Source: Plasmodiophora brassicae
Taxonomy: Eukaryota
DNA: 64,000 nucleotides
Direction of reading: 5' to 3'
Assembly (NCBI GenBank): GCA_036867785.1
Contig: CP145410.1
Coordinates: forward strand, 1,736,001 to 1,800,000
Below the pieces are notes generated by a model that ran no database searches, was not told the origin of the DNA, and was given only the letters and a program-made list of their open reading frames with translations. Numbering within the stretch: the first letter of the stretch is position 1; each line of letters opens with the position of its first letter. The position numbers and the translations under genes are program-made. Below, piece by piece: positions 847 through 59,020 of the stretch.

Positions 847-1252
847 TCGCTTAAAATTCACCAGATATTCGCATTCGCGAAAATATCTCGAGCACTAATA
901 TGCTACCCCGGCAGGTGAACCAACTCGAATTCGGTATAAAACATGTAACAGCTGTGTGGATCCCGAACATGCAAACACGACGAAGTTGTCACACGAGAAC
1001 GGGTCTCGTGGGTGAGGTGCAGCCAAAACGAACGAGCGCGAGCTGTTTGAAGCCACCAGATCCTCTGACAATTCAAACGGCATGCTCGAGCCGCCTGCGT
1101 GAGAAGCGCGCGCGAAACCCAAATAAACTAAACTAAACCGGCATTCCCTTTGATGCCAACGGCAGTGGCAGGCTTGTCGTGTATCAAACATAAATGAAAC
1201 ATAAATATTGCACGAGGCTGTGATGCGGAGTCGGGGAGGAGGACGGGATGCC

Positions 1253-4200
1253 TCACACGCGGGTCATCCCGGCAGCTTTCGCCAGCTGTTTGCCATCGGA
1301 GATATCGATCTTGTTCTCCGCGAGGCGCTTCTCGAGAAAAGCCAGATAGGCGGTGACATGGGCGTTAGGAGACGCCGTCGCATTGCCGCCGCCGGTGACG
1401 CCGGTCGACGATTCTGGTTTCGAGAAATGCATAGTCGCCGTCTTCGTCATAGCGGTGTTCGTCTGCACTTTCACGTTGCCTTTGCCTTGCCAGATCAGCG
1501 TCGCCTTGGGGAAGTAGATCGCCGTCGTGAACGAGATCGAGCACCAGAGAATACCCAGAATGAACAGCGTCGTGTAGATCTGCGGTTGCGCCGGCACCAG
1601 CATCGAGATCAGCGGGAAGATGACACATGAAAAGATCGCCCCGTACAGCCCAAGCGTAATATGGGTCGACTCATTGAAATCGCTCTACAAACGCGTTCAG
1701 AACGGTACAGCACCGAACAGCAACCACATACCGGAGCGTGCCGAGTCTGGAATGCGACGAGCGCGCACGCGAGCAACGGAAGGAATATCGCGACGGCAAC
1801 TGGAACGGCCGTGACCGCATGGATAGGACAAGCCATGGTCTGCGTCACTAACGACCCGGACACTGTCACCTCCAGGTACGGAACGGGAGGATCGGCAACG
1901 GTAACGATCGTCAACATCAGCGCCGCCAGGATCAGTCCGATCACAACCGGGATCAGCAGCTTCTGGTTCGGCAACCTGACCACGTGGATCGATGCGCTGA
2001 AGAACACCTTCCAGATGCGGTACGCTTTGGCAGCAATCACGGACAGCAGGGCGACGATCGACAGCGTCGGGAGCCACCAGCGCAACGCACAGACCGTTGT
2101 CGATGCCGGCACCAGGTACGGGATGCACGACAGGAAGCAGGCGCACAACGACACCAGCGTGTACAGGTTGAACGCGTACGACGACGCCTTGATAATGGCA
2201 TCGTCGCGATGTCGGTACACCATGCCCAGTAGCATCAGCGCACCGACCGCACCCAGCAACGCCACCGCCCAGGCGATCGCCACAATCGTCGCATTGGCCG
2301 GCGACGTCACCGTGACGTACCTGTACGTCACGACCTTATCGAGCAGGGCTTGCCCGTCGAACTGGACTCGGCACGGAGCGGTCGCCGATCCGATCTGCTT
2401 CGTCTCCGGATCGTACTGCACGCCACCGACGTGCGTGATCCACCACTGGTCCCCGGGACGGATCTCAGAGACGGCGCTGTGCCCGGCGCGTGGCCCGCAC
2501 CCCGCGCCATACGTCATTGGCACGGCGACCCACTCCCGGGAAATGATCAGGTACACGTACGTCGACATCGGTATCGATGCATCCGTTGTGCGTCCGCCTT
2601 GGACGACGAGCACGTTCCGGCCGCTGATAGTGACGACAACGACCGTGAACTGCGTCAATGCAATTGGCATGGGCGGCAGCGCCGTCCACTGCCCGCTGTT
2701 CAGGTCGAGGACCCAGGCATCGCGCAATGCATTGCCGTTCCACTCGCCGCCGAGCACGTACCACGATCGGTCCCCAACCAGGACGCTGCGGTGACGGTTC
2801 CGCACCGGTGGCGATCCCTTGACCGGGTCGGGCAACGTCTGGAGTTGTTGCCAGGCGGCGGACGGCGGCACTTTGTTCGGCGTCCACGCGCCCGACAGGT
2901 TCAGGTACCAGACGTCGCCGAAAAACTGGTACAAGCCACGGCCGCCCATCGTATAGAACACGGGCGAGCCGACGTTGTTCGTGACCGCGCACGCTGAACC
3001 CCAACGTTGTCCAGGGCCGGCAGCATCCGGCGGTACGTTCAGCGACTGCCAGTGCAGGTACAGATCGGCGAATCCGCGCCCGTTCAGTAACAGGTTGACC
3101 TGGCCGGACACGGTCATGGTCGTCGGGTCGTTGCCGCCGTACTGCACAGCCAGCGTCGCCGACCCATCCGCCGATCTGATCGACGCCACGCACGATTCCG
3201 CCAACGCTGCCGGCCCCACGCCCGTGACGTTCATCAGCGTGGACGACGATTCCGGTGACCAGTTGTCCCCCAGCACTACGTGATCACAGAGAAGTGTCAT
3301 CAACCTCGAATGGATCAAGCATGCGCAGTTCCCTGCCGGCCAATCTGCGTACCATCGAAAGACCAGATGCGGTGGGCATCGCCGAACTGGTAGATGTAGG
3401 ATCCCCAGGCGTTGCTGACGTTGACGGCTGCGCACGTCGAGGCGGGATCCGGGGCGCGGCCGTACAGCGTCACGGGCATCATGATGTTGACGTGGGTCAG
3501 GTCGCGGGCCAGCCAGTAGTTCCCGTCCAGGGGCAACGTCAGTGCCCCAGTCGCCAGGTCGCTGATCGCCTTCGACTGGATCGTCGCGAACGATGCTGGC
3601 ACGTGCGAACACGCGTCATGACAAGGCGAAAGACCAACGCCGCCGTTCGAAGCGTCGAAAAACGCGTTCGTTCCGCCTTGGAATGTCCCGGCCAGCACCG
3701 ACTTCAGCGTCACGTAGACCGACACGTCCACCTTTTTCAACGCCGTCGCTGTAAACATGATGGATCAGAACGGAGAAACAAGTGGTTTCCTTTGGACGCC
3801 CACCCAAGACACGGGTCTTCAGTGTGCTATTCACTGCGTTCACCAACAGAGGTCAGATCACCGAGGCTGACTCGTGAATGCTCAGCAGATCAACGAACCA
3901 AAGGCAGTGGCGTAGTAGTCCGCATCAACGCCGATAATGAGAGCATTCGGGTTCGCAATGGCCATGTAGTTGTCGGCAACGGCCCCAGCGCCGCCACCAA
4001 CCCTGCGACCGCTTTTGAATTTCTGATCGCAGCACTCGTATTCCAGTTCCCATACCCGAATATAATATCGGCGTTGTCGTCGGCAAACATTCGTCCTAAG
4101 GGTGCCAGATACGGTCCGCCAATAAAATCGAACATGTACTGCTCCAGAATGATGCAGGTCGGACAAGTCTATGGAGGCAGGCACGTTACTGCCAATGTCT

Positions 4201-4834
4201 CAAATGGACATGCACACCAACCTGTCGAACGCCGAGCTTGAATCCGTTGCAGTATCCCCGAACGGGTGGCAAAGGGACTCCGCCCGCGCTGGCCACGACT
4301 TTCGTTTGCGTCACCAATCCGGCCAGTAAACCAGCAAGGTATCCGGCCTGCTCCTGACGGAACAGAATCCCTTGGGAGTTCTTCGGAATCGTATCCCCAG
4401 GAGGGACGTTGTCGACTATGGCCATGCCAATACCCGGTGTCTGCCGGGGCAGGTCAGCATTGGAGAATATGGGAGAACCATTACGAACTAACATTGAGGT
4501 ACGCAGCTGACAAAGCCTGAATCATCGGCGTGGCTGTGAAGCTGGCGAAGATGAAGAAATTGCAATCAGTGGCACCGGGCTGCACTTCCCATGGGACGAA
4601 CACATCGCCGTTAGCGTAGCGGTTCTGTTCAACTGCTTCCAGGATGACGACTTTGTACTTGAACTTGGACGGATCGTTAACCTCGTTATAGACCCGGGCC
4701 ATGCCGTCGTAAACGCCCTCCATGAACCCCCCGTCCATGATGAGATTCTGCTGGCTCACAAAGCAGACCGACACCGGAGCAGCATGGGTAACCGGCACCG
4801 CGATGGCCGTAAAGACCAGGATCCACGAGAGCAT
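1253..4834 (-). CDS. Class C-type GPCR, copy 1: signal peptide + BMP/PnrA-like solute-binding domain + kelch repeats + 7TM (multi-exon)
   Basis: Signal MLSWILVFTAIAVPVTHA; BMP motifs DGGFMEGVYDG, FRQEQAGYLAGLLAG, IIGVDAD, ALKKVDVSV; kelch motifs YVLGGEWNG..DAWVLDLNSGQW, PRAGHSAV; 7tm_3 motifs IIKASS, AKAYRIWKVF, FNES, YFPK. Confidence 0.85.
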
Positions 4835-6016
4835 CGCGGTAATGCGTCGCCGGACACTTCGTGAACTATATACGCGGGAGGACACGGTACCGACCCGGAA
4901 TTTTAACTGACCGTAGGTACCTGTGACGGCAAGTGTCTGACAGCCCATGCATTGAATTTATACTACAACCAGGCACAGCTACTTCTACATCTACGTAGAA
5001 GTAGTGATTAACCGGCTCGCTGTCATGCAATGAATGTCCTTCACGCAGATTGCAAAAGCGATGAACGACCTCGGGTCTCCTCACTACGCTCGTAGCAAGC
5101 AGCCCAGCTAGGTCGACAATCTCAAAGAAATTCGTGTTATGGTCGTCGTCGTACCTGTCGACGAATAAAGCGGAAGACCCGAACGTTTATTGGATTACTG
5201 GGTACGCATTCCCGATCGGAACCCAACGCATATGATGGATCGCCATTTGCAAAGCGGACGCGCCGCCGGTGTTCGTCCACACCTGGACATGTCATTTGCA
5301 ACGATGCGGGCAGCTTGGTCCACAGTGCGCTCGAGTGAATTATCGGGATCGGAAGTGCCCAGGTCGCCGGGTGGGTGGGTCACATCACGAAGCCGCATGC
5401 GGGGTCACTACAGAACGATCTCAGAACGAGCCTGGATTATGAATTGCGGGCACGAACGTAACTGGTCCACTGCCCCATCTTTCCACACCACTAAACCCTT
5501 GGCGTGTTCGGGCCCGTAACCGGCGGGGTTGCCCCCAATGGGGTTGATTCGGGGAGGGGTTGTGAGCCCCGAACGACTAATACAGAGATGACATGTTTGT
5601 CCCTGTACCTGCAGGGGACGGCGCACTGGGTGGCGCCCCTTAAAGGGGCTGCGACCAGACGCAAGCAGGAGGGAGAGCACGTTGGAAGACGAAGGGGCGC
5701 CTGTAAATTAGGTGACCACCTCCCACGAGGGGTGGATGCCGTCTGTAGTGTTATAGCCAGATCAACCACAGTGAGGGAGATCAAAGTCTACGAACGTATG
5801 GCGAGTTCAATGAGCCATGAGACTCGCCCCGGAGTCGCCAATCTGCGAGATCCCAGCACAAAGGTGACAGGCCGGCACTGCCCGGCCGGGAGAAGCTGAC
5901 GCTCTGGAAGCTGATCCTACGGTCCTCGGACCCGAGACCGAGGCGCCTGCTTAAAAGCGCTAAACACAGTTAACCTGAACAAAACTACAATGCCATCCAA
6001 AGCAAATCGTTCGTGT

Positions 6017-7284
6017 CCTAAAGGGAATTTGAAAATCCCGTTACCAGCGAGCTCGCCAAAGCCGGTGAGATTGCAACCATGATTGGGACGGCAATCTTAG
6101 ATCTGACACTCACATCCCAACAGGGTACCCAAGTCACCCTGCGTCGAGTGGAATGTCTAGTTTCCAGAGATGACTTGAGCGTTAACGCCGTCCTCATTGG
6201 CCGACATGAGCTCGACATTCTCGGCATCAACCCCGATGGCATTCTCGAGGACAAGTACTCCAACAGTACTGACATGATCGAACTTGTGTGTACGTACGAA
6301 CACCTACGTACTGCAACCACTGGCAAACGAAACGTTGTCGTGTGGAGACTCCAAAGAATTTGGTAAGTCAACCCGATCCTGATGATGACTGCTTTGTCGA
6401 TGATTGTAGGAGACTTCGATCAATCGGAACTCGGCAAAGCAATTGACAGCATGGCGGATCGCGCCGTTTAGGAAGGACTACCACCTGAACGAGTTACGTC
6501 TTATCGTATATGATCACCATGATGTATGGAGGGTCAAACTGCATTGGATACCGCCAGTGAAGGTAACCCCGATGAAATTGCATTTGAAGCAAGATGCTCA
6601 GCCTGTAGCATGTGGAGCTACCCTAATACCGTGTCATAACATTTGGTACCTCCGATCCCAGCTCCATCTGCTACACGTTGAGCATCTTGCAATTCTATCG
6701 GGGTTACCTTCCCTGGCGGTATCCGGTGCAGTCTGACCCTCCATACATCATGATGATCATATACGATACGACATAACTCATTCTTGTGTTCAGGTGGTAG
6801 TCCTTCCTCAACAGCGCGATCCACCATGCTGTCAATTGCTTTGTCGACTTCCGATTTATCGAAGTTCTCCTACCTCACCAATAGTTTTTGTACGAACATT
6901 GAGCAAGTCGCTCCTACATCGACAAAGTAATAGTCATCATTCGGATCGGGTTGACTTACCAAATTCTTTAGAGTCTCCACACGACAACGTTTCGTTTGCC
7001 AGTGGTTGCAGTACGTAGGTCTTCGTACGTATACACAAGTTCGATCATGTCAGTACTGTTGGAGTACTTGTCCTCGAGAATGCCATCGGGGTTGATGCCG
7101 AGAATGTCGAGCTCACGTCGGCCAATGAGGACGACGTTAACGCTCAAGCCATCTCTGGAAATTAGACATTCCACTCGACGCAGGGTGACTTGGGTACCCT
7201 GTACGATTGCCGTTCCAACTATGGTTGCAATCTCATCGGCTTTGGCGAGCCCGCTGGTAATAGGATTTCCAAATTTCCTGTAGG
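6017..7284. repeat. Inverted repeat, arms about 6017-6619 and 6660-7284, loop about 40 nt
   Basis: Arms are reverse complements at roughly 85-90% identity by eye, with indels; 7293-7386 is an extra direct copy of about 6910-7000. Confidence 0.95.
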
Positions 7285-7386
7285 TACGATTTGCTAGTCT
7301 CCTACATCGACAAATTAAAGTAGTCATCACCCGGACCGGGTTCACTTACCAAATTCTTTGGCGTCTCCACACGACGTTTCGTTGCC
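6017..7386. mobile_element. Degenerate Ty3/Gypsy-like pol fragment (protease C-terminus and linker to RT), present in both orientations
   Basis: VLIGRHELDILGI resembles the retropepsin ILGRD.L motif; DHHDVWRVKL..PP.KVTPMKLHLKQDAQPV resembles the pre-RT linker; frameshifts and stops present. Confidence 0.65.
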
Positions 7387-8294
7387 ACAACTCACGACGA
7401 CTAGACAAACAATACGAGACTACTGAGCCCAGCAAGTAAGTGTATCAATACATCGGATCGGTGGACGTTTCTGACTTTGGGCGGAGGCCGTGTTCTACTT
7501 GTGGGTATGGCCAGGTGCCGGTACTTGAGGGTGCGCGTGTCTTGACTCCTCCCTCGACCGGACACGGTCGTCGCACGCAGCAAACCCTTTGTTTGAGGTC
7601 TTCGAACTAGACCCGCCCGAGAGCTTTGGTGGATATGTCGGCGAGGTTGTCGCCAGTTCGCACGTACGAAACGCGCAAGCTTGTGCAGCTTCAAAGTGGC
7701 ATGGAATTGCGGACAAAGCTAGCCGTCTTCCTGACGACCATCCTGGAACGCATACGTATGCCACACGTGCTAGGAGAGTCGACGCAGCTGATCACAACGA
7801 TCGAGGGAATGGACGTCACACTGGACGACGTCCTATAATGTGAGCCGACGTAAACTCTACACGATGATGTGGTCATCCCGTACAATTCCTATCCGATCAC
7901 AACCGCGTTTCGCCTCCTCATCCGGAAACTTAACGAAGCTGAACTTGCAAGCCTATCCCACGCATGACTCCTTCTCAGCAATGCTCTGTCGAGCAACCGA
8001 ATTTACCGGTCATGCGAACAGATCCTCTCGTTATGAGTGGAATTACTGTCACAACGACCCACGCATAGCGGACGTGTCCAACGGCTGATACCTTCCTGGT
8101 GCTACTGTTGGGTCACGTGCTCGACCCGAACTTATTGAAGTACATCGTGTTCGCGAGCCAGCTGCTTCTTCGGCAAATTAAGGGAGCAACCACGAATAGA
8201 CGTACTTCAACTTCGCACGACCTGCAGGACGTGCGAAGTGGGTGACACAGTTGGTGGAATCGCAATCGTATACCCGCCACGACAGCTCCGCGTC

Positions 8295-11200
8295 TCAGGC
8301 GCGCTGCAGACCCGCAGACCTCGCGAGATGCGCACCATCGGAGACATCGATATTGTTCTCCGCCAGGCGTTTCTCCAGGAACGCCACGTACACCACGAGA
8401 TTATCGTAGAGCGATGTGGCCATCTTGCCGCCGCCGGTGATCTCGTTCGACGATTCACGTACAGCAATAAGTATCCCCGGCGTATGCTTCAGATCCGATT
8501 TCGTATGCAGTTTCAGGTTGCCTTTGCCTTGCCAGATCAGCGTCGCCTTGGGGAAGTAGATCGCCGTCGTAAACGAGATCGAACACCAAAGAATGCCGAG
8601 GATGAACAGCGTCGTGTAGATTTGCGGTTGCGCCGGAACGAGCATTGAGATCAGCGGGAAGACGACGAAGGAGAAGATCGCCCCGTACAACCCCAAGGTC
8701 ATATGCGTCGACTCATTGAAGGTACTCTGTACGGAAACGTCTCAGAATAAGACAATACAGAGCGTCAAAGACATCCGCGCTACCGGGGCATGCCGAGTCT
8801 GGAACGCGACGAAAGCGCAGACGAACAACGGAAGAAATATCGCGACGGCAACAGGCACGGCCGTGGCCGCATGGATAGGACATGCCACGGTCTGGGTCAC
8901 TAACGAACCGGTCACCGTCACCTCCAGGTACGGAACGGGAGGATCGGCGACGGTAACGACCGTTAACATCAACGTCGCCAGGATCAGGTCGATCGTGACC
9001 GGAAGCAATAGCTTCCGATTCGGCAGCCGAACCACTTTCATGGAGTCGGTGCAGAACACCTTCCAGATGCGGTACGCTTTGGCAGCAATCACGGACAGCA
9101 GGGCGACGATCGACAGCGTCGGGAGCCACCAGCGCAACGCACAGACCGTTGTCGATGCCGGCACCAGGTACGGGATGCACGACAGGAAGCAGGCGCACAG
9201 CGACACCAGCGTGTACAGGTTGAACGCGTACGACGACGCCTTGATAATGGCATCGTCGCGATGTCGGTACACCATGCCCAGTAGCATCAGCGCACCGACC
9301 GCACCCAGCAACGCCACCGCCCAGGCGATCGCCACAATCGTCGCATTGGCCGGCGACGTCACCGTGACGTACCTGTACGTCACGACCTTATCGAGCAGGG
9401 CTTGCCCGTCGAACTGGACTCGGCACGGAGCGGTCGCCGATCCGATCTGCTTCGTCTCCGGATCGTACTGCACGCCACCGACGTGCGTGATCCACCACTG
9501 GTCCCCGGGACGGATCTCAGAGACGGCGCTGTGCCCGGCGCGTGGCCCGCACCCCGCGCCATACGTCATTGGCACGGCGACCCACTCCCGGGAAATGATC
9601 AGGTACACGTACGTCGACATCGGTATCGATGCATCCGTTGTGCGTCCGCCTTGGACGACGAGCACGTTCCGGCCGCTGATAGTGACGACAACGACCGTGA
9701 ACTGCGTCAATGCAATTGGCATGGGCGGCAGCGCCGTCCACTGCCCGCTGTTCAGGTCGAGGACCCAGGCATCGCGCAATGCATTGCCGTTCCACTCGCC
9801 GCCGAGCACGTACCACGATCGGTCCCCAACCAGGACGCTGCGGTGACGGTTCCGCACCGGTGGCGATCCCTTGACCGGGTCGGGCAACGTCTGGAGTTGT
9901 TGCCAGGCGGCGGACGGCGGCACTTTGTTCGGCGTCCACGCGCCCGACAGGTTCAGGTACCAGATGTCGCCGAAAAACTGGTACAAGCCACGGCCGCCCA
10001 TCGTATAGAACATGGGCGCGCCGACGTTGTTCGTGACCGCGCATGCTGAACCCCAACGTTGTCCAGGGCCGGCAGCATCCGGCGGTACGTTCAGCGACTG
10101 CCAGTGCAGGTACAGGTCGGCGAATCCGCGCCCGTTCAGTAACAGGTTGACCTGGCCGGACACGGTCATGGTCGTCGGGTCGTTGCCGCCGTACTGCACA
10201 GCCAGCGTCGCCGACCCATCCGCCGACCTGGTCGACGCCACGCACGATTCCGCCAGCGCTGCCGGCCCCATGCCCGTGACGTTCATCAGCGTGGACGACG
10301 ATTCCGGTGACCAGTTGTCCCCCAGCACTATGTGATCACGGGGAGGTGTCATCAACCTCGAATGGATCAAGCGTGCGCAGTTCCCTGCCGGCCAATCTGC
10401 GTACCATCGAAAGACCAGATGCGGTGGGCATCGCCGAACTGGTAGATGTAGGATCCCCAGGCGTTGCTGACGTTGACGGCCGCGCACGTCGAGGCGGGGT
10501 CCGGGGCGCGGCCGTACAGCGTCACGGGCATCATGGCGTTGACGTGGGTCAGGTCGCGGGCCAGCCAGTAGTTCCCGTCCAGGGGCAACGTCAGTGCCCC
10601 AGTCGCCAGGTCGCTGATCGCCTTCGACTGGATCGTCGCGAACGATGCCGGCACGTGCGAGCACGCGTCATGGCAAGGCGAAAGACCAACGCCGCCGTTC
10701 GAAGCGTCGAAAAACGCGTTCGTCCCGCCTTGGAATGTCCCGGCCAGCACCGACTTCAACGTCACGTAGATCGACACGTCTACCTTCTTCAGCGCGGTCC
10801 CTGCGGTCTTTACGAATCAGTTTGGGGGCATTCTCGTGATTGTCTGTTGATACTCACCCAAGACGCGGGATTTCAAAGTGCTATTGGCTGCGTGTACCAT
10901 TCGGGAGTCAGCCACCATTTTCATTGAATGACCACGCGAACGGACCGAAGGTAGAGATGTAATAGTCGGCGTCGACTCCGACAACAAGAGCGTTCGGGTT
11001 CGCGATGGCTGTGTACTGGTCGACAAGGGCCCCAGCTTCGCCGCCCACCCTACGGTAGTTTGGGAACATGAGCGCCGACAGTACATAATACAGGGTCTTC
11101 GACCAGGGTACCCACCCGTAAATAATGTCGGCGTTGTCGTTGGCGAACATTCGCCCTAATGGTTCCAGGTACGGCCCGCCCGAGAAATCGAACATGTATT

Positions 11201-15441: not shown

Positions 15442-16932
15442 TTACTCGGTTCTGGGCGGCTGGTCGGCGAGTCGCGGATGGAGCGGCGCTGGGCATCCGC
15501 CCTGGTCGCCACGCTTCCGCCGACACCGCCGCCGGCGCCGCTCGCCGCCTTCGTTGCAACGGGGTTGATGAGGACGACGATGCCGATGAGGATCCGGGTC
15601 AATACGGTTTGGTAGAGAGGGGCCCTTTCTTTGTAGTGCAGGCGGCCCCCCGACTTCGAACGTCCCGCCGCGTTCGCTGCGCATGTCGCTCCCGGTAATA
15701 ACTGCCAGGTGGTCAACGCCGGCTTTCTTTCGCTCCTCGATGCGGCGCATGACGGACGTGTCTGCTTCGTTGACCGTTACACCATGCAGATCAACGTCGG
15801 AGATGTCCCGTCGTGCGTTGTTCCCTTCGTCAGCGGCCAGTGCGTTCTGCACCAGTTGCTGCTTAGTGCCCTGTCGTGCTCGCCGACCGTGCTGACGTCC
15901 TGCGACACGCCTGCGTTCGTCAGCTGTCGTCGTCGGAGCCGTTTGCAGCACAGGGTTCACGACACCGAGTTGTGTTGTAGGCGCCAATATGGGAGGTGAC
16001 TGTGACTCAGCGGGAACTTCAGCCGTCTGCGTTTGACCGGCATCGTCACAAAGCTGGACGACGATGCAGCCCGGGTTGGATTCGTGGTTGGTGACTACGA
16101 ACCCCTTCTCTTGCAGATGGTGTTTAATCTTGCGCCCCAGAACGGGTACACGACCTCTGCTGTTGTTACCGCGGCCAACGATAGCCGTCAAGAGCTTTGT
16201 TCGGGCTGCTTTGCACGTGTCGATGCGTTCCATGAGGTACTCGAGTGCTTCTGGAACGCTCAAGTCGTGGAGATCGATCTGATTCATCTTCCTCCGCGCA
16301 TTGTTGGCGTGGAAGAACGCGCTGGCGGCCAGAGCGTACTCCTGCTCTAATAAGCGTTGCTCGTTCTTGCGAGCATCGGACAGCCGTTTGGCAAGCGACC
16401 GGTCGTTAGCCATGAACGCTGCTTGGGACCGTTCGGAGAAGTCATCTCTTTGCTGGGTGTGGAATTGTGCTCGTTCGCGGTGACTCTCTGCCTCACGTCT
16501 GTACTCCTCTGGTGACACAGCGGGATCGTATGTTAGGCGAACGACGTGACGTCGTTCAGCGGTGGGGCATTGAGCAGCTTGCCCGGACGACAGATGGGGC
16601 TGTACAGCGGAGGATGGCAAATTCACAGATCGTAGGGCATCGTCGCTGTGTTGGGTGTGGAACTGTGCTCGTTCGCGGTGACTCTCTGCCTTACGTCTGT
16701 AGTCGTCTGGTGACACAGCGGGATCGTATGGTAGGCGAACGACGTGGCGCCGTTCAGCGGTCGGGCATTGCACAGCTTGACCGGACGATGGTCGCGTACT
16801 TTGAGCAGGTACTAGGGCATGCCGATGGCTATGGAGGCCGACAGGATGGGGACGCACAGCGGGCGATTGCATGTTCGCGTATTGCACGGCATCGATCGTA
16901 TAGTCGTCCATGCAGCCCAGAGAGTTACCCAT
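15442..16932 (-). CDS. DUF1771 + Smr domain endonuclease-like protein with a second degenerate Smr (intronless)
   Basis: YRREAESH..SQAAFMANDRSLAKRLS (DUF1771); IDLHDLSVPEAL..IVGRGNNS..NPGCIVV (Smr); second copy VDLHGVTVNEA..VITG; 198-bp internal tandem duplication. Confidence 0.85.
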   Translation of the reverse strand: MGNSLGCMDDYTIDAVQYANMQSPAVRPHPVGLHSHRHALVPAQSTRPSSGQAVQCPTAERRHVVRLPYDPAVSPDDYRRKAESHRERAQFHTQHSDDALRSVNLPSSAVQPHLSSGQAAQCPTAERRHVVRLTYDPAVSPEEYRREAESHRERAQFHTQQRDDFSERSQAAFMANDRSLAKRLSDARKNEQRLLEQEYALAASAFFHANNARRKMNQIDLHDLSVPEALEYLMERIDTCKAARTKLLTAIVGRGNNSRGRVPVLGRKIKHHLQEKGFVVTNHESNPGCIVVQLCDDAGQTQTAEVPAESQSPPILAPTTQLGVVNPVLQTAPTTTADERRRVAGRQHGRRARQGTKQQLVQNALAADEGNNARRDISDVDLHGVTVNEADTSVMRRIEERKKAGVDHLAVITGSDMRSERGGTFEVGGPPALQRKGPSLPNRIDPDPHRHRRPHQPRCNEGGERRRRRCRRKRGDQGGCPAPLHPRLADQPPRTE

Positions 16933-17057
16933 TGGACGCCGGCACTCACAACGTGAAAAGCGAACGGTGGGACGGCACTAAGCAATAGGCACCGAATGTT
17001 AACGTCCAACACGGGCGGCGCACTTCCAGCGTCGGAAAGAACCGTACGAAGGTACGG

Positions 17058-17288
17058 TACGGCTATGTCACGCAAAGAGCATCAACCGGTGGTTCGAAGC
17101 CCTCAAGCGACACACCGAATACCTCACTCGACTGGGCGTACTTCGGAGCCGTGCTCTGTAGACCGGACCGCCCAACTAGGCCGCGAGAGCAGGCGGTCCG
17201 GTTTACAGCACGACTCCGAAGTACGCCCAGTCGAGTGAGGTGAGGGCTTCGAACCACCGGTTGATGCTCTTCGCGTCGCATAGCCGTA
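17058..17288. repeat. About 231-nt fold-back hairpin (about 100-bp stem, one ~15-nt bulge, ~19-nt loop)
   Basis: tacggctatg..gaagccctca pairs with tgagggcttc..catagccgta; cctcactcgactgggcgtacttcggag pairs with ctccgaagtacgcccagtcgagtgagg. Confidence 0.95.
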
Positions 17289-17289
17289 G

Positions 17290-19680
17290 TTCAGAGGCCT
17301 TGGCCGCCTTGTCGCTATGCTGGCAATGCGTGCTGCGTCGACAGCGCTGTTGCCGTCTAGCGCGCAGTTCCGATTGCTGATGCGCGTATTCGTCGACCGC
17401 TTGGTCTTCACGGAGTCCGGAAGTTCGGGCCAGCCACGGGTTGCCGACGCGCGCATGTCTGGTCGCCGGTCAGCGAGCCCAGGTGCGCGTTAAAGTCGCC
17501 GATGACATCCCGGCCCTCGTTGGCCTGTTCCAGGGCGCCATTGGGTCGCCCGACCTGTTCAACGTGCTGATCGACGACCTGCCCAAGGAGCTGGTCGACA
17601 AGTTCGGCGACAAGTTCGGCGATCGCTGCCCGCAGCTGGCCAGCATGCCGATGCCGTGCCAGCTGTACGCCGACGACACGACGCTGCACGCGTTCGACGA
17701 GGAGACGGCGCAGGAGATGGCGGACCACTGCCAGGCGTACGCTGAACGCCACCAGATGCAGTGGAACGCGGCAAAGTCGATCGTGTCGCGACCGGCGGAC
17801 CGCCCCAGATCGCCCTCCTCGGTCATGGAGCGGCCGGCGATGACAATGCCCCGCGTCTTCGGCCGGTCCGCCGGTCGCGACACGATCGACTTGTCGGCAT
17901 TCCATTGCATCTGGTGGCGCTCGGCGTACGCCTGGCAATGGTCCGCCATCTCCTGCGCCATGCTCTCGTCGAACGCGTGCAGCGTCGTGTCGTCAGCGTA
18001 CAACTGACACGGCATCGGCTCGTCGGCGAGCCTCGGGCAGCGATCGCCGAACTTGTCGACCAGCTCCCTCGGCAGGTCGTCGATGAGCACGTTAAACAGG
18101 TCGGGCGACCCGATAGCACCCTGGAACAGGCCCACAAGGGCCGGAATGCGACGCGATCGCTGGCCGTCCATGGTAATGATGAAGCCGCAGTCGTCGAATA
18201 GCGCCTGGATGACGGCGACGATCACGAGCGGCACACCGCGACCGATCAGCTTGTCGTAGACGAGGCGACGGCGCGCCGAGTCGTAGGCCTTGCGCATGTC
18301 GAGCAGGATCTCGGTCAACGGGCGCTTCGCGTGGGCGTAGTACGACGTCAGCTCGTCGGCACTGTCATCGCCGGCCGCGCCATGACCGAGGAGGGCGACC
18401 TGGGCAAGACGAACCGCCTGCTGGGCGTCGTCATGAAGCAGGGGCGCCTACAGCACGCGGAGCAGCTACGCGACCGCATGGCCAGGGCGGAGTCGGCCAT
18501 GGTCGGCATCGCCAAGTCGGGCGGGTTCGCCACCAACTAACTGCCTGTCACTGGTCCGCCAGGCGCGCGCGCCTGGGTAAGGTCGCGCGCCGAGTTCGGC
18601 ATGTCGTTCTGTCGGCACACAGCCCCGTCTCTCGCCAAGTTCGACTCGCTCCAGCGGAGCATGTGCGTTCTCTTCTTCGGCGGGCGCCGCGTGCGCCGGG
18701 GCAACATTCTGGTGATGCGGTACGCTGGCATTGCGCCCGGGCAGGCACGCCAGGCCAGGATTCGCACGAGTTTCGTCGTGAAGCGGATCGAGCGTGTCGA
18801 GCAGGTCAAGGACGGTGAGCCGGTCCCGTTCCTCGCCAAGGTCACCCAGTGGGCGTTGCAGCCGCGGCCAGCAATGTCGGCACGCAGGAAGCCGTACCAA
18901 AGCCGCCTCAGTTACAGTGTAGTGATGAGGCCGGGTTGCAGCAGGTCGACGACGACGACGAGCACGACAACGGCGCAGGCATCGATCGGGACGGCGGCCG
19001 GGATGTGCGCGCCAACGATCAGGACGGCGCGCGTGACGCGCAAGCGGCCCGACCGGTCGGATCCGGTAGGGACCTGGCGGGAACGCGCCCCTGTCGATCG
19101 ACGCAGTCATCCGGCATCCTGCACCAAGGCCACCGTCAGCAAGCAAGGCAAGCCGAGGCACGTGGCGCGACATACCTGCTGGCAAGGGCGATCGCACTGG
19201 ATGTCGTCGTCAGATGCGTCGCCGCGGCGGGATCGACGTACGCGCCTGGCAATCGCGGGCTCTTAAGAACGAGTCCTGGGCGTCGTTGGGTCGACAGGCA
19301 GACATCGACCTGCCGACGATGCTGGGCAGCTTCTGGTCGAATACGCGCTCGCAGCCAGCGGATCCTGTTGTGGACTGTTACGTGAATCACCGGGCGAATG
19401 ACACGATTCATGGAAGGCGACAATGTCTCCGCAAGTTCCGCCGGATCGTGCACCCGTGTACGTGACAGAACCTGCCATCAGGCGCAAACGTATCGTTGCT
19501 CGTCGAATTCCCACAATCGATGTCGCTGCCCATACTTCATATCTGCACCGTCGACGTCGTTGCTGCACGGGAACCAGATTATCGCGACGAAGCTAGGTTC
19601 GATCGACCGACAGACGAATGCTGGATCGAATGGGATCTTTACTGGCCAGATCAGGCGAACAGGTGCCTGCGCGCGTAGTC
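17290..19680. mobile_element. Scrambled non-LTR (LINE) retrotransposon remnant with APE endonuclease and RT fragments on both strands
   Basis: Minus strand VIGDFNAHLG at about 17475-17506 (APE motif); RT motifs LLDMRKAYDS, GLFQGAIGSPDLFN and LYADD, the latter two on both strands; plus-strand post-RT continuation NRLLGV..SRAEFG with a stop at 18538. Confidence 0.9.
17506..18148. repeat. Inverted repeat of the RT core, arms about 17506-17805 and 17861-18148
   Basis: The same RT segment is encoded on + and - strands; the loop 17805-17860 also pairs with 18358-18403. Confidence 0.95.
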
Positions 19681-56499: not shown

Positions 56500-57722
56500 G
56501 GGCGCCTTATAATGTCACCCGGGTGCAGCGGCCAGCCCCCCGGTCACCCGCCCGCCACCCTAGTAACGACCTGGCCGACAGCCATACCCACCACCTTCAG
56601 TCCCATATAGAACGGATGCATAATAACGACCTGGCCGACAACCATATGAAACGGACGGTATGCGACGTTTGGTGTAATATGAAACGGACAGTGTTGCGGA
56701 TTTCAGTGCCATATGAAAACGGACGATATTGCGAATTTCGGTGTCATATGAAACGAACGACGTTGCGGAATTCACTCTAATAAGAAACGGATATTGCAAA
56801 TTTCGGTGTCATATGAAACGCACCATGGATTTTCGAGCAGGCCAACGTAGCTGGTCCGGTCGGACGCACGCCAAATAGGGAAGATTGGTGCGGAAGCACA
56901 TAGCACGACAGACAGGTGACACCAGTCAGTCCGAGCAGCATTTGACGTAGCATCAGTTCAAGCGACAGGGCATGACGTACGTACCAGTCCGAGCAGCGGT
57001 GTGTGACGCATCACCAGTGCCTGCAGGTGATGTCACGCGTCATGTCGACCAACGTCGACGACTACGTGACACGTGCAAGTGACCGGTGTGTGTCCAGTCA
57101 TAATTCCCGCGCAGCATTTTCGGTGTCGTCACTCGTCACGTCTGCACACCGCGGCGGGGAAAAGACGCCGTCAGTCGTCAGATGGAGTGCAACGATAGAG
57201 ACAGCGTATGGAGGCGACAAGCGGACGAGGACTCGGAAGACTCGCGTCCTCATCTAGCAGTGACGATGATATTGATGAAGTTGTCACGGCCGGCTTGACG
57301 CTCAGCGAGCAAGTGCTCAACCCGCGGCCAAAGGTGGCAGCCAAGCGCGGATGGGGTGGCGCTCGACCTGGACGGGCGCCGAACGAAAACCACAGGCGAC
57401 TGTTGTATGCCCAGCTACTCTTTGATGATTACTGGGGCCCTGATCCGGTTTATGATGCCAATCGTTTTTCGACGGACGTTCCGAATGCCGAAGGCGCTTT
57501 TCGATGAGATTCACGAACGCGTGACCCGGTTCGACGAATACTTCCTGAAGAAAAATGATGCTCTTGGGGTAAGGACTGTTCTGTTCTACCTGTCGGTTGC
57601 GTTTATAACCGAATCTTCCTTAGGTTCCAGGGTTTACGTCCTTGCAGAAAGTCGTCTGTGCGGTGCGCATGCTCACTCCAGGTGATTCAGCACATGAGCT
57701 GGACGACAAATTCAGGTTCAGC
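56500..57722 (+). mobile_element. Truncated PIF/Harbinger-type DNA transposon: putative left end + frameshifted transposase 5' part (57208-57722)
   Basis: LFDDYWGPDPVY, frameshift, FRRTFRMPKALFDEI..DEYFLKKNDALG, intron, GFTSLQKVVCAVRML..ELDD; this is the Plant_tran-type N-terminus and the DDE core is missing. Confidence 0.85.
56604..56824 (+). repeat. Tandem 32-35-bp repeats with core (C/A)ATATGAAACG(G)AC, probable transposon subterminal repeats
   Basis: Core at about 56643, 56676, 56710, 56745, 56778 and 56810 (variant at 56604); 17-bp direct repeat taacgacctggccgaca at 56564 and 56624. Confidence 0.85.
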
Positions 57723-58136
57723 ACGGTGTCATGCAGCTGGAGAACCGTGTGGCATAGGCGCTCGACCGTGTCCTTCAGCGAGAAGACGTCCACGGTCAGT
57801 CGGGCCGCCACCTCCGGCTGAGCGTCTCGCAGCATGCTGTCCGGGATCGCGGTGATGTTCACTCTGAGAAACTCGACCAGGATCTCCCCTGACCATCCCA
57901 CGATGAGTCGTGCTTGCGATGAGCTCGGCTTACCGAGGTCAACTCTGAGGGGATGGTCAGAGGAGATCCTGGTCGAGTGTCTCAAGGTGAACATCACCGC
58001 GATCCCGGACAGCATGCTGCGAGACGCTCAGCCGGAGGAGGCGGCCCGACTGACCGTGGACGTCTTCTCACTGAAGGACACGGTCGAGCGCCTATGCCAC
58101 ACGGTTCTCCAGCTGCATGACACCGTGCTGTACCTG
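57713..58136. repeat. Inverted repeat, 187-bp arms (57713-57899 and 57950-58136), 50-nt loop
   Basis: Near-perfect reverse complement with a few substitutions. Confidence 0.97.
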
Positions 58137-58141
58137 CAGCG

Positions 58142-59020
58142 AGAGAACCGCCAACAGGCCCTCGCAATGGCTCAAATGCAGAGCGAGATCCTAGAGGTGC
58201 TGATCGATGTCTGACAGGCCTACTGCAGCGGCGCAATCGACCCACGATATCCCCGCTTCTTATGGCATGATGCGTCCTCGTTCGGGAGCGTGAGACGTTT
58301 CATGGTACGTGCAAGCAGAAGACAGACTACTACGCGCTCGCGTTCGACGACAACCGGCGCTTGGTTGCAATTTGGCGCGATGGCCGGAGAATCTCCTCTC
58401 TCCACTGGAATGTGGGAGGGCGTCGCCACCTGAAAAGCGGGCCCAGATGCCGTTTTCAGCAGCGCGTCAGCGTATCTGAATCGAACGTTCGATACGCTGG
58501 CTGACAGATACGAACACTTTGCTTCGGTTTCGTCTAGCCTGGGCGACCTCGATGGTCACGTGCATCGACGAACCAGGTCCCACTCTCTGTCGTCGATGCA
58601 CGTGACCACCGAGGTCGCCCAGGCTAGGCGAAACCGACGCAAGGTGTTCGTATCTGTCAGCCAGCGTATCGAACATTCGGTTCAGATACGCTGACGCGCT
58701 GCTGGAAACGGCATCTGGGCCCGCTTTTCAGGTGGCGACGCCCTCCCACATTCCAATGGAGAAAGGAGATTCCGGCCATCGCGCCAAACTGCAACCAACA
58801 AGCGCCGGTTGTCGTCGAACGCGAGCACGTTGTAGTCTGTCGTCTGCCTGCACGTACCATGAAACGTCTCACGCTCCCGAACGAGGACGCATCATGCCAT
58901 AAGAAGCGGGGATATCGTGAGTCGATTGCGCCGCTGCAGTAGGCCTGTCAGACATCGATCAGCACCTCTAGGATCTCGCTCTGCATTTGAGCCATTGCGA
59001 GGGCCTGTTGGCGGTTCTCT
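58142..59020. repeat. Inverted repeat, about 430-bp arms (58142-58571 and 58590-59020), 18-nt loop
   Basis: Near-perfect reverse complement; about 15 substitutions and 2 small indels counted by eye. Confidence 0.97.

Follow-up and report, generated by a model that had tools for sequence, protein, structure and literature searches.

How does a reverse transcriptase gene come to be interrupted by an antisense piece of its own coding region, and could the resulting hairpin matter to its host? The question is raised by a locus of the plasmodiophorid Plasmodiophora brassicae that lies in a 64,000-nucleotide (nt) stretch of contig CP145410.1 (assembly GCA_036867785.1, positions 1,736,001 to 1,800,000 of the forward strand), which we call the window and whose positions are counted from its first letter. 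Here a sense copy of the reverse transcriptase (RT) region of a long interspersed nuclear element (LINE) is broken by an antisense fragment of that same region, an arrangement that a first-pass annotation had described and on which inverted repeats, BLASTN, the Pfam family RVT_1 and the YADD motif all agree. The locus is a long inverted duplication of transposon coding sequence. We lean towards reading it as a dead mosaic of non-LTR (LINE; LTR, long terminal repeat) pieces put together by non-homologous joins, in which the antisense fragment would most likely be a complementary DNA (cDNA) primed on the 3' terminus of the left-hand sense piece.

The mosaic extends over 17436-18861 and contains four LINE pieces of alternating orientation: a short endonuclease-domain fragment, and three RT pieces that we name A-left, B and A-right (Table 1). 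Positions within the element are counted from the 5' end of B (position 1) to its other end (position 554). The catalytic motif YADD is present in the translations of both A-left and B; the latter reads from DELTSYY.. through LDMRKAYD and YADD to ..MTEEGDLG, is truncated at both ends, and finds its best PDB matches in LINE-1 ORF2p (1.4e-6) and the R2 RT (3.9e-6). The antisense RT piece is thus where it had been placed, with a length of 554 nt in place of the approximately 557 bp first given.

Table 1. Pieces of the LINE mosaic and the inverted repeats that they form (window positions).
Feature	Position	Strand	Description
Antisense endonuclease-domain fragment (apurinic-type, LINE)	17436-17507	-	Reads ..VIGDFNAHLGSLTGDQ.. 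(..VIGDFNAHLGS..); adjoins the 5' end of A-left
A-left, sense RT fragment	17506-17803	+	IPALVGLFQG .. YADD .. SRPADR; 5' end truncated; Pfam RVT_1 E 1.5e-9
B, antisense RT fragment	17804-18357	-	554 nt, 184 codons without stop; Pfam RVT_1 E 8.4e-14
A-right, sense RT continuation into the C-terminal part	18358 to about 18861	+	GTVIAGRAMTEEGDLG..; translation and tblastn of relatives to 18861
Inverted repeat pair	17601-17805 / 17861-18065		205 nt, 87% complementary
Inverted repeat pair	17506-17610 / 18044-18148		105 nt, 90% complementary
Inverted repeat pair, alternative second pairing	17804-17850 / 18358-18404		47 nt, 94%, 3 mismatches
Main hairpin	17506-18148		Stem of about 290 paired positions formed by A-left with B positions 210-495; 55-nt loop 17806-17860

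The condition of the pieces is that of a dead element. A-left contains a private in-frame tandem duplication of 12 nt (DKFGDKFGD, the extra unit near 17597-17608), and these 12 nt are absent from another copy; this and all later comparisons with other copies are among the contig pieces listed for the sequencing runs described below. A-right has an in-frame stop at 18538-18540 and, relative to another copy, indels of 4 nt at 18539 and 7 nt at 18568. Homology to LINE proteins ends at ~18861, and diverged copies match A-right as far as about 18916. Reading of the sequence from 18860 to 19400 reveals no poly(A), and there is no target-site duplication, a single 8-mer being the only direct repeat that joins the junction flanks with 18800-19500. 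Of the hallmarks of the LINE class, the locus therefore has an RT domain with YADD and lacks an intact 3' end, a tail and a target-site duplication. Third-position G+C is 88-95% in all of the pieces, and A-right is not separable from B by composition.

The endonuclease fragment was recognized in tblastn by six distant LINE proteins of full length (P0003, P0006, P0007, P0009, P0011 and P0013), the best match being P0007 residues 140-171 against 17530-17435 (50% identity, E 4e-6), which lie inside the Exo_endo_phos_2 match of that protein (residues 109-211). It spans only 24-32 residues in antisense, and a Pfam scan gave no match in it and none in the flanking frames; among five full-length relatives scanned, four pass the Exo_endo_phos cut-off, and all five have an Exo_endo_phos_2 match, which is above the cut-off in one. 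In runs X4, X15 and X16 the segment 17436-17507 alone is common to another locus, with flanks that are unlike on both sides. The left neighbor of A-left is another LINE piece and not unique target DNA, and its join to A-left is a third breakpoint that the first-pass annotation had missed.

No further copies of this LINE family occur elsewhere within the window, and two word-index protein searches for family members returned no hits each. A metagenome scan yielded 31 loci, all just 25-33% identical, whose open reading frames (ORFs) had matches in the window to the B region alone. A full HMMER search gave 4,093 hits with a best identity of 48%, and the nearest named RT relatives are from P. brassicae itself, as is the nearest named relative, at 87% identity, for a protein disulfide-isomerase gene of the window; the LINE relatives have ORFs of 1,022-1,280 amino acids (aa) on contigs of 5-6 kb. 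Neither an Rfam scan nor a tRNA scan of the window produced a match. Transposable elements are reported to make up 11-14% of the P. brassicae genome, with LINEs a minor class, in the accessible part of a recent preprint (bioRxiv 10.64898/2026.10.14.759018).

The presence of the structure in reads was examined in 24 sequencing runs by sampled words and in four of these (X4, X15, X16 and X18) by comparison of contigs. The stretch is present wholly or partly in 20 of the 24 runs, from 8 studies, and at least half of the sampled words are present in 14, which contain 0.81-0.97 of them. Contigs of X4, a run from an independent study, have no differences from the window across 17478-17898 and 18128-19064 and bridge both B junctions (17803/4 and 18357/8), so that these joins are real. 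Their depth at the junctions is 180-263, as against 256 in the unique flank, and this equality indicates that the structure is single copy. Across the four runs, the first B junction is bridged in two (X4 and X18) and the second in three (X4, X15 and X16). The junction at 17505/6 is less secure, since X4 reaches only 28 nt on one side, below the 31-nt rule. In X16 the hairpin has no cover over 17583-18017, a gap to which we attach no meaning. No joint that skips B, as an empty site would, was seen among the contig pieces listed in the four runs, which does not imply that such an allele is absent.

The sequences at the joins are informative about how they were made. Homology of A-left to the element stops at 17802 (..GGACCG) and the reverse complement of B begins at 17804 (CCCAG..); the CC at 17804-17805 is assignable to either piece and 17803 fits neither. 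At 17505-17507, 2 nt (CA) are common to the endonuclease fragment and A-left. Microhomology at the junctions is thus at most 2 nt. Of the approximately 3-nt microhomologies (ccc, ggc) originally suggested, the first is represented by the ambiguous CC, and the second, at 18357/18358, would depend on the upstream continuation of B. The stretch of the element that codes for P-K-T-R, 11-13 nt, is missing between the two sense pieces, so that the about three codons first noted are a fair estimate. In element coordinates the first junction joins position ~497 of A to position 554 of B, arm ends that lie 57 nt apart, and the second joins position 1 of B to position 508 of A, so that the outer end of B (554) overlaps the start of A-right (508) by 47 nt.

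Homologous sequence is brought side by side at neither B junction. The proposal that B was inserted at the homologous site under the guidance of homology is not supported by this comparison: no homology is joined at the junctions, B does no more than extend over the broken region, and annealing between homologous sequences would yield a sense and not an antisense orientation. The combination of little microhomology, an 11-13 nt loss and no target-site duplication is instead what end joining or internal priming would leave, and because B lacks both element ends it is not a canonical 3'-anchored insertion. The inverted repeat is most likely a by-product of retrotransposition or repair.

The two arms are 89% identical, with 36 differences in 330 nt (110 aligned codons), and the distribution of these differences is strongly uneven. 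They affect 21 codons synonymously and 9 by replacement, close to the about 20 and about 7 first counted by eye, and by codon position number 6/8/22; the excess at third positions (22 of 36) has a P of 0.0001. By the Nei-Gojobori method over the 110 codons there are 22.2 synonymous and 13.8 replacement differences, giving a dS of 0.369, a dN of 0.057 and a dN/dS of 0.153. In 20,000 neutral simulations, in which the same base changes were placed randomly, the mean number of synonymous codons was 9.0 and the maximum 20, so that none reached 21. The two wrong reading frames give 6/27 and 2/27 synonymous/replacement codons, and three other palindromes of the window, taken as controls, are without a third-position excess (6/7/3, 10/9/11 and 11/14/12). 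The replacement differences lie in two patches (PQLASMP versus PRLADEP and DEETAQ versus DESMAQ), as would be expected of old differences between lineages. The codon comparison thus indicates that coding constraint acted on A and B while they diverged, before the two came to be joined, as had been proposed from the silent changes.

Comparison with other copies leads to the same view of the arms. An uninterrupted copy reads from element position ~542 to ~290 unbroken and has 7 differences from A-left in 199 positions, and another copy spans the 5' truncation point of A-left with 1 difference in 105 positions and one inserted base, as against 22 differences in 204 positions for B over the same stretch. 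Other copies are therefore closer to A-left than B is, and the arms are not sister sequences. The outcome that would have refuted the first-pass annotation, sister arms with a dN/dS near 1, was thus not obtained. They represent, as judged from these alignments, at least two LINE lineages that diverged while active. The overlap of B with A-right is short: 3 of 45-47 positions differ, and within 45 nt there is 1 synonymous and there are 2 replacement differences. BLASTN gives 44 of 47 identical positions for this pair, and 255 of 298 columns (including the 12-nt gap) for A-left against the reverse complement of B.

LINE pieces that are inverted, truncated or nested are familiar, and as a rearrangement of this sort the locus is ordinary. 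From the layout of the pieces we infer a cDNA origin of B and the following order of events. With the DNA broken where A-left stops, the top strand would have primed, by its 3' end there, reverse transcription in the RNA of a LINE of another lineage, at about position 554; cDNA synthesis would have run from there to position 1; and the cDNA end would then have been ligated by end joining to the sense piece on the right. Two variants of this scheme may be considered. In one, a single resident copy with a truncated 5' end, made up of A-left and A-right, suffered a break with loss of 11-13 nt and took up the doubly truncated B. In the other, B and A-right originated jointly, through twin priming on one RNA, beside the older fragment A-left. 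Either would produce an inverted repeat of ~300 bp, 87-90% matched, over the catalytic core of the RT.

The first variant may be likened to the endonuclease-independent or internally primed LINE insertions known at DNA breaks from the LINE-1 (L1) literature. The doubly truncated piece, the missing target-site duplication, the small target deletion and the 0-2 nt of microhomology are all found in such L1 insertions; the P. brassicae case differs from them in that the target is a copy of the same family, the piece covers the homologous region, and its cDNA origin is put forward from its structure. For the second variant, the geometry of twin priming is present, with antisense B (554 to 1) followed directly by sense A-right (from 508) and an overlap of 47 nt, and the flanking target-site duplications of a twin-primed insertion are not found. 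LINE-1 twin-priming or dual-priming inversions are similar in having an inverted upstream piece and then a sense downstream piece, with ends close together in element coordinates, as described in the accessible part of PMC2837659, and dual priming as proposed there would permit two different RNAs. Unlike LINE-1 twin priming, the arrangement here has an extra sense piece, A-left, preceding the inverted one and almost in register with A-right; it has no target-site duplication or poly(A), and its inverted and sense pieces have 3 differences in 45-47 positions. The element is also a LINE of a protist, and the nearest relative in the databases is just 48% identical to it.

Several points weigh against the capture of a primed cDNA. 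For the first variant, the chance that B would happen to cover the break site is ~1 in 9 by our own estimate (554 nt of a ~5-kb element). For the second, A-left must by coincidence end at most ~11 nt from the start of A-right, for which the chance is roughly 1/100 or worse; this coincidence would be removed if a later deletion at the hairpin tip had trimmed the center. The 45-nt overlap agrees with either variant, a Fisher test against the remainder of the arm giving p 0.44; its differences are consistent with later decay as well as with different lineages, and A-right is assignable to neither lineage. A rough likelihood calculation on this overlap leans slightly to the second variant. The locus has neither poly(A) nor a target-site duplication nor a defined 3' end by which target-primed reverse transcription could be recognized, and B may have been copied at the DNA level from another genomic copy.

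Among the alternatives the one that fares best, though we consider it unlikely, is such an origin at the DNA level, in which two family members inserted independently into this intergenic stretch, tail to tail, and the hairpin tip was then trimmed by a roughly symmetric deletion. Revision of a palindrome through a break at its center is a familiar mechanism, and a central deletion would leave the end of A-left (~497) next to the end of B (554), so that the 57-nt closeness of the arm ends at the first junction needs no coincidence. The different lineages of the arms are accounted for as well, and long palindromes are evidently tolerated, with 4 other loci in the 64-kb window. Against this, the start of A-right (508) at the 5' end of B is left unexplained and needs twin priming or a further event, a remnant of the deleted 3' halves was not found by tblastn with LINE proteins, and more events are called for than in the capture of a single cDNA.

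Whatever the origin of the arms, an RNA containing both would be expected to pair extensively. The main stem has perfect runs of which the longest are 34, 30, 29 and 21 nt, and its arms share 34 of 265 21-mers. The plus-strand RNA has a predicted fold of -697.5 kcal/mol, as against a shuffle mean of -430.9 (z -27.9; none of 20 shuffles as good), and that of the minus strand is -729.6 kcal/mol (z -33.7). The arm differences are directional (17506-18404), with C in A and T in B at 13 sites and the reverse at 2, and as a consequence 17 of the 33 arm mismatches become G:U pairs in a minus-strand transcript and only 5 in a plus-strand transcript. This C/T asymmetry could reflect C-to-T decay of B or a difference in codon usage between the lineages. 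It is possible that a transcript running through both arms would fold into long double-stranded RNA (dsRNA) and be cut by an RNase III into small interfering RNAs (siRNAs) against both lineages.

The small-RNA biology of P. brassicae gives this some context. As described in the portion of a 2026 report available to us (PMC13547706), the organism has abundant phased 21-nt siRNAs, which derive mainly from intergenic loci and then from transposable elements, and a palindromic region that gives rise to microRNAs. Its RNA interference (RNAi) pathway is there said to comprise two Argonautes and a Drosha-like enzyme that cuts long dsRNA, with neither a Dicer nor an RNA-dependent RNA polymerase (RdRP); the origin of the siRNA precursors is stated in the same text to 'remain unclear' (PMC13547706).

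Two known systems may be compared. Mu killer of maize is likewise a natural inverted duplication of transposon coding sequence, with possible read-through from a neighbor gene into hairpin RNA; this partial inverted duplication of MuDR has demonstrated siRNAs and heritable silencing (PMC3440606, accessible part), whereas for the P. brassicae locus such a role would be hypothetical, and its arms come from two diverged lineages and are 87-90% paired. Trypanosoma brucei is, like P. brassicae, a protist, and there each of 7 long inverted repeats, of 422-10,011 bp, yields siRNAs, beside siRNAs derived from retroposons; its repeats are 99-100% identical and in the available part of the text are not described as retroposon fragments, in contrast to the 11% divergence of the arms here (PMC3447711).

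That the hairpin is a functional siRNA precursor against its LINE family, kept by selection in an organism whose RNAi has no RdRP, would be a rather improbable extension of these parallels. In its favor are the long stem with four perfect runs of at least 21 nt and the shared 21-mers, the presence of 0.81-0.97 of the sampled words in 14 runs, the P. brassicae small-RNA biology cited above (PMC13547706, accessible part), and the strand of the neighboring genes: both the Smr-domain gene (15442-16977) and the kinase gene (from 19933) are on the minus strand, the transcript of which has the 17 G:U pairs. Each junction is also covered by contigs, identical or nearly identical to the window, from runs that are merely guessed to be RNA (17740-17873 and 17869-18157 in X18, 18038-18392 in X15 and 18048-19064 in X16). 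These contigs are without strand information, however, and none from the runs guessed to be RNA spans both hairpin arms; no run that contains the stretch is listed as RNA. The arms are moreover less well paired than the T. brucei repeats that produce siRNAs (PMC3447711, in the part available), and presence in many runs is expected of any fixed neutral locus in a largely clonal organism. The locus is most likely ordinary transposon debris that could feed RNA silencing.

We regard as very improbable a local fold-back, that is, a palindromic duplication of one LINE copy that later diverged. Long palindromes are frequent in the window and their arms are 80-98% alike, but a duplication of this kind would not concentrate its differences at synonymous sites (21 against 9 codons, the 21 being reached in none of the 20,000 neutral simulations, and unlike the pattern of the three control palindromes), and other copies are nearer to A-left (7/199 and 1/105) than B is (22/204). 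Nor is the sense-antisense-sense order a plain palindrome, and a rescue would need later gene conversion of one arm. The first-pass annotation had likewise rejected a simple fold-back. An assembly artefact, by chimeric joining of repeat copies, is weaker still and can practically be dismissed, since although repeats and inverted repeats are a classic source of misassembly and De Bruijn contigs do break at 17869-17898 and 18128-18157, both B junctions are reproduced by X4 from another study with no differences and at single-copy depth, two further runs bridge the second and one further run the first, and the 11% difference between the arms rules against a fold-back read artefact, with the qualification that the junction at 17505/6 is less secure than those of B.

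The sequences that flank the mosaic have features of their own. Directly upstream, 17059-17288 forms a hairpin whose stem, about 100 bp long, is nearly perfect (-198.1 kcal/mol, z -21.7). Its apical 36 nt (17157-17192) are high-copy with many different flanks, with a summed contig depth of 5,668 as against about 256 in X4, and of 1,019-5,534 as against 6-28 in runs guessed to be RNA. The hairpin has no Rfam match and just one copy within the window, and it may belong to a hairpin or miniature inverted-repeat transposable element (MITE) family, or represent one of the palindromic small-RNA loci of P. brassicae. Just downstream of the LINE remnant, the segment 18940-19250 is multi-copy (summed depth 450-930 as against about 260) and gave no LINE-protein homology by tblastn. 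Its copies vary in tandem structure, with joints that reach 40-47 nt backwards at 18978-19024 and, at 19117-19175, a skip of 57 nt, and loose contig ends are found at about 18939 and 19250. Further upstream, a 149-nt direct repeat (16442-16590 and 16640-16788, 90% identical, spacing 198 nt) lies within the N-terminal part of the Smr/DUF1771-domain ORF 15442-16977 and shows up in the translated protein as a block of repeated peptide.

Besides the LINE hairpin there are 4 long palindromic loci in the 64 kb, or 5 in all. A nested palindrome of about 1.3 kb at 6017-7387 has arms 6120-6402 and 6917-7202 at 95% and an inner part (6406-6873) at 80%; it lies between two near-identical genes, and its arm differences (6/7/3 by codon position) have no bias. 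Two adjacent long palindromes are found at 57713-58136 (424 nt, 91%) and 58142-59020 (879 nt, 94%), with differences that are even over the codon positions. The candidate identities of the palindrome fragments as protease-like (6.0-7.4 kb) and Harbinger-like (57.3-59.0 kb) were not supported, as Pfam found no significant family in any of 8 frames. The 6.0-7.4 kb palindrome is flanked by two paralogous minus-strand ORFs about 7 kb apart (1609-3615 and 8742-10667; 668 and 641 aa), in which Kelch repeats are followed by a 7tm_3 domain of family-C G-protein-coupled receptors.

The locus provides a clean, read-supported case of a transposon hairpin whose arms come from lineages that diverged under selection, and it is the evidence on the arm lineages that tells a capture or inversion in the course of retrotransposition apart from a duplication by fold-back. 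An RNAi system without RdRP, in which the dsRNA precursors are an open question according to the accessible part of PMC13547706, gives the hairpin a modest extra relevance. We put forward only tentatively, and with considerable doubt, that transposon hairpin loci such as this one may supply the long dsRNA, a source of which is so far missing, for transposon-directed 21-nt siRNAs in this plasmodiophorid. If so, arms that represent two LINE lineages would let a single locus silence a wider range of copies.

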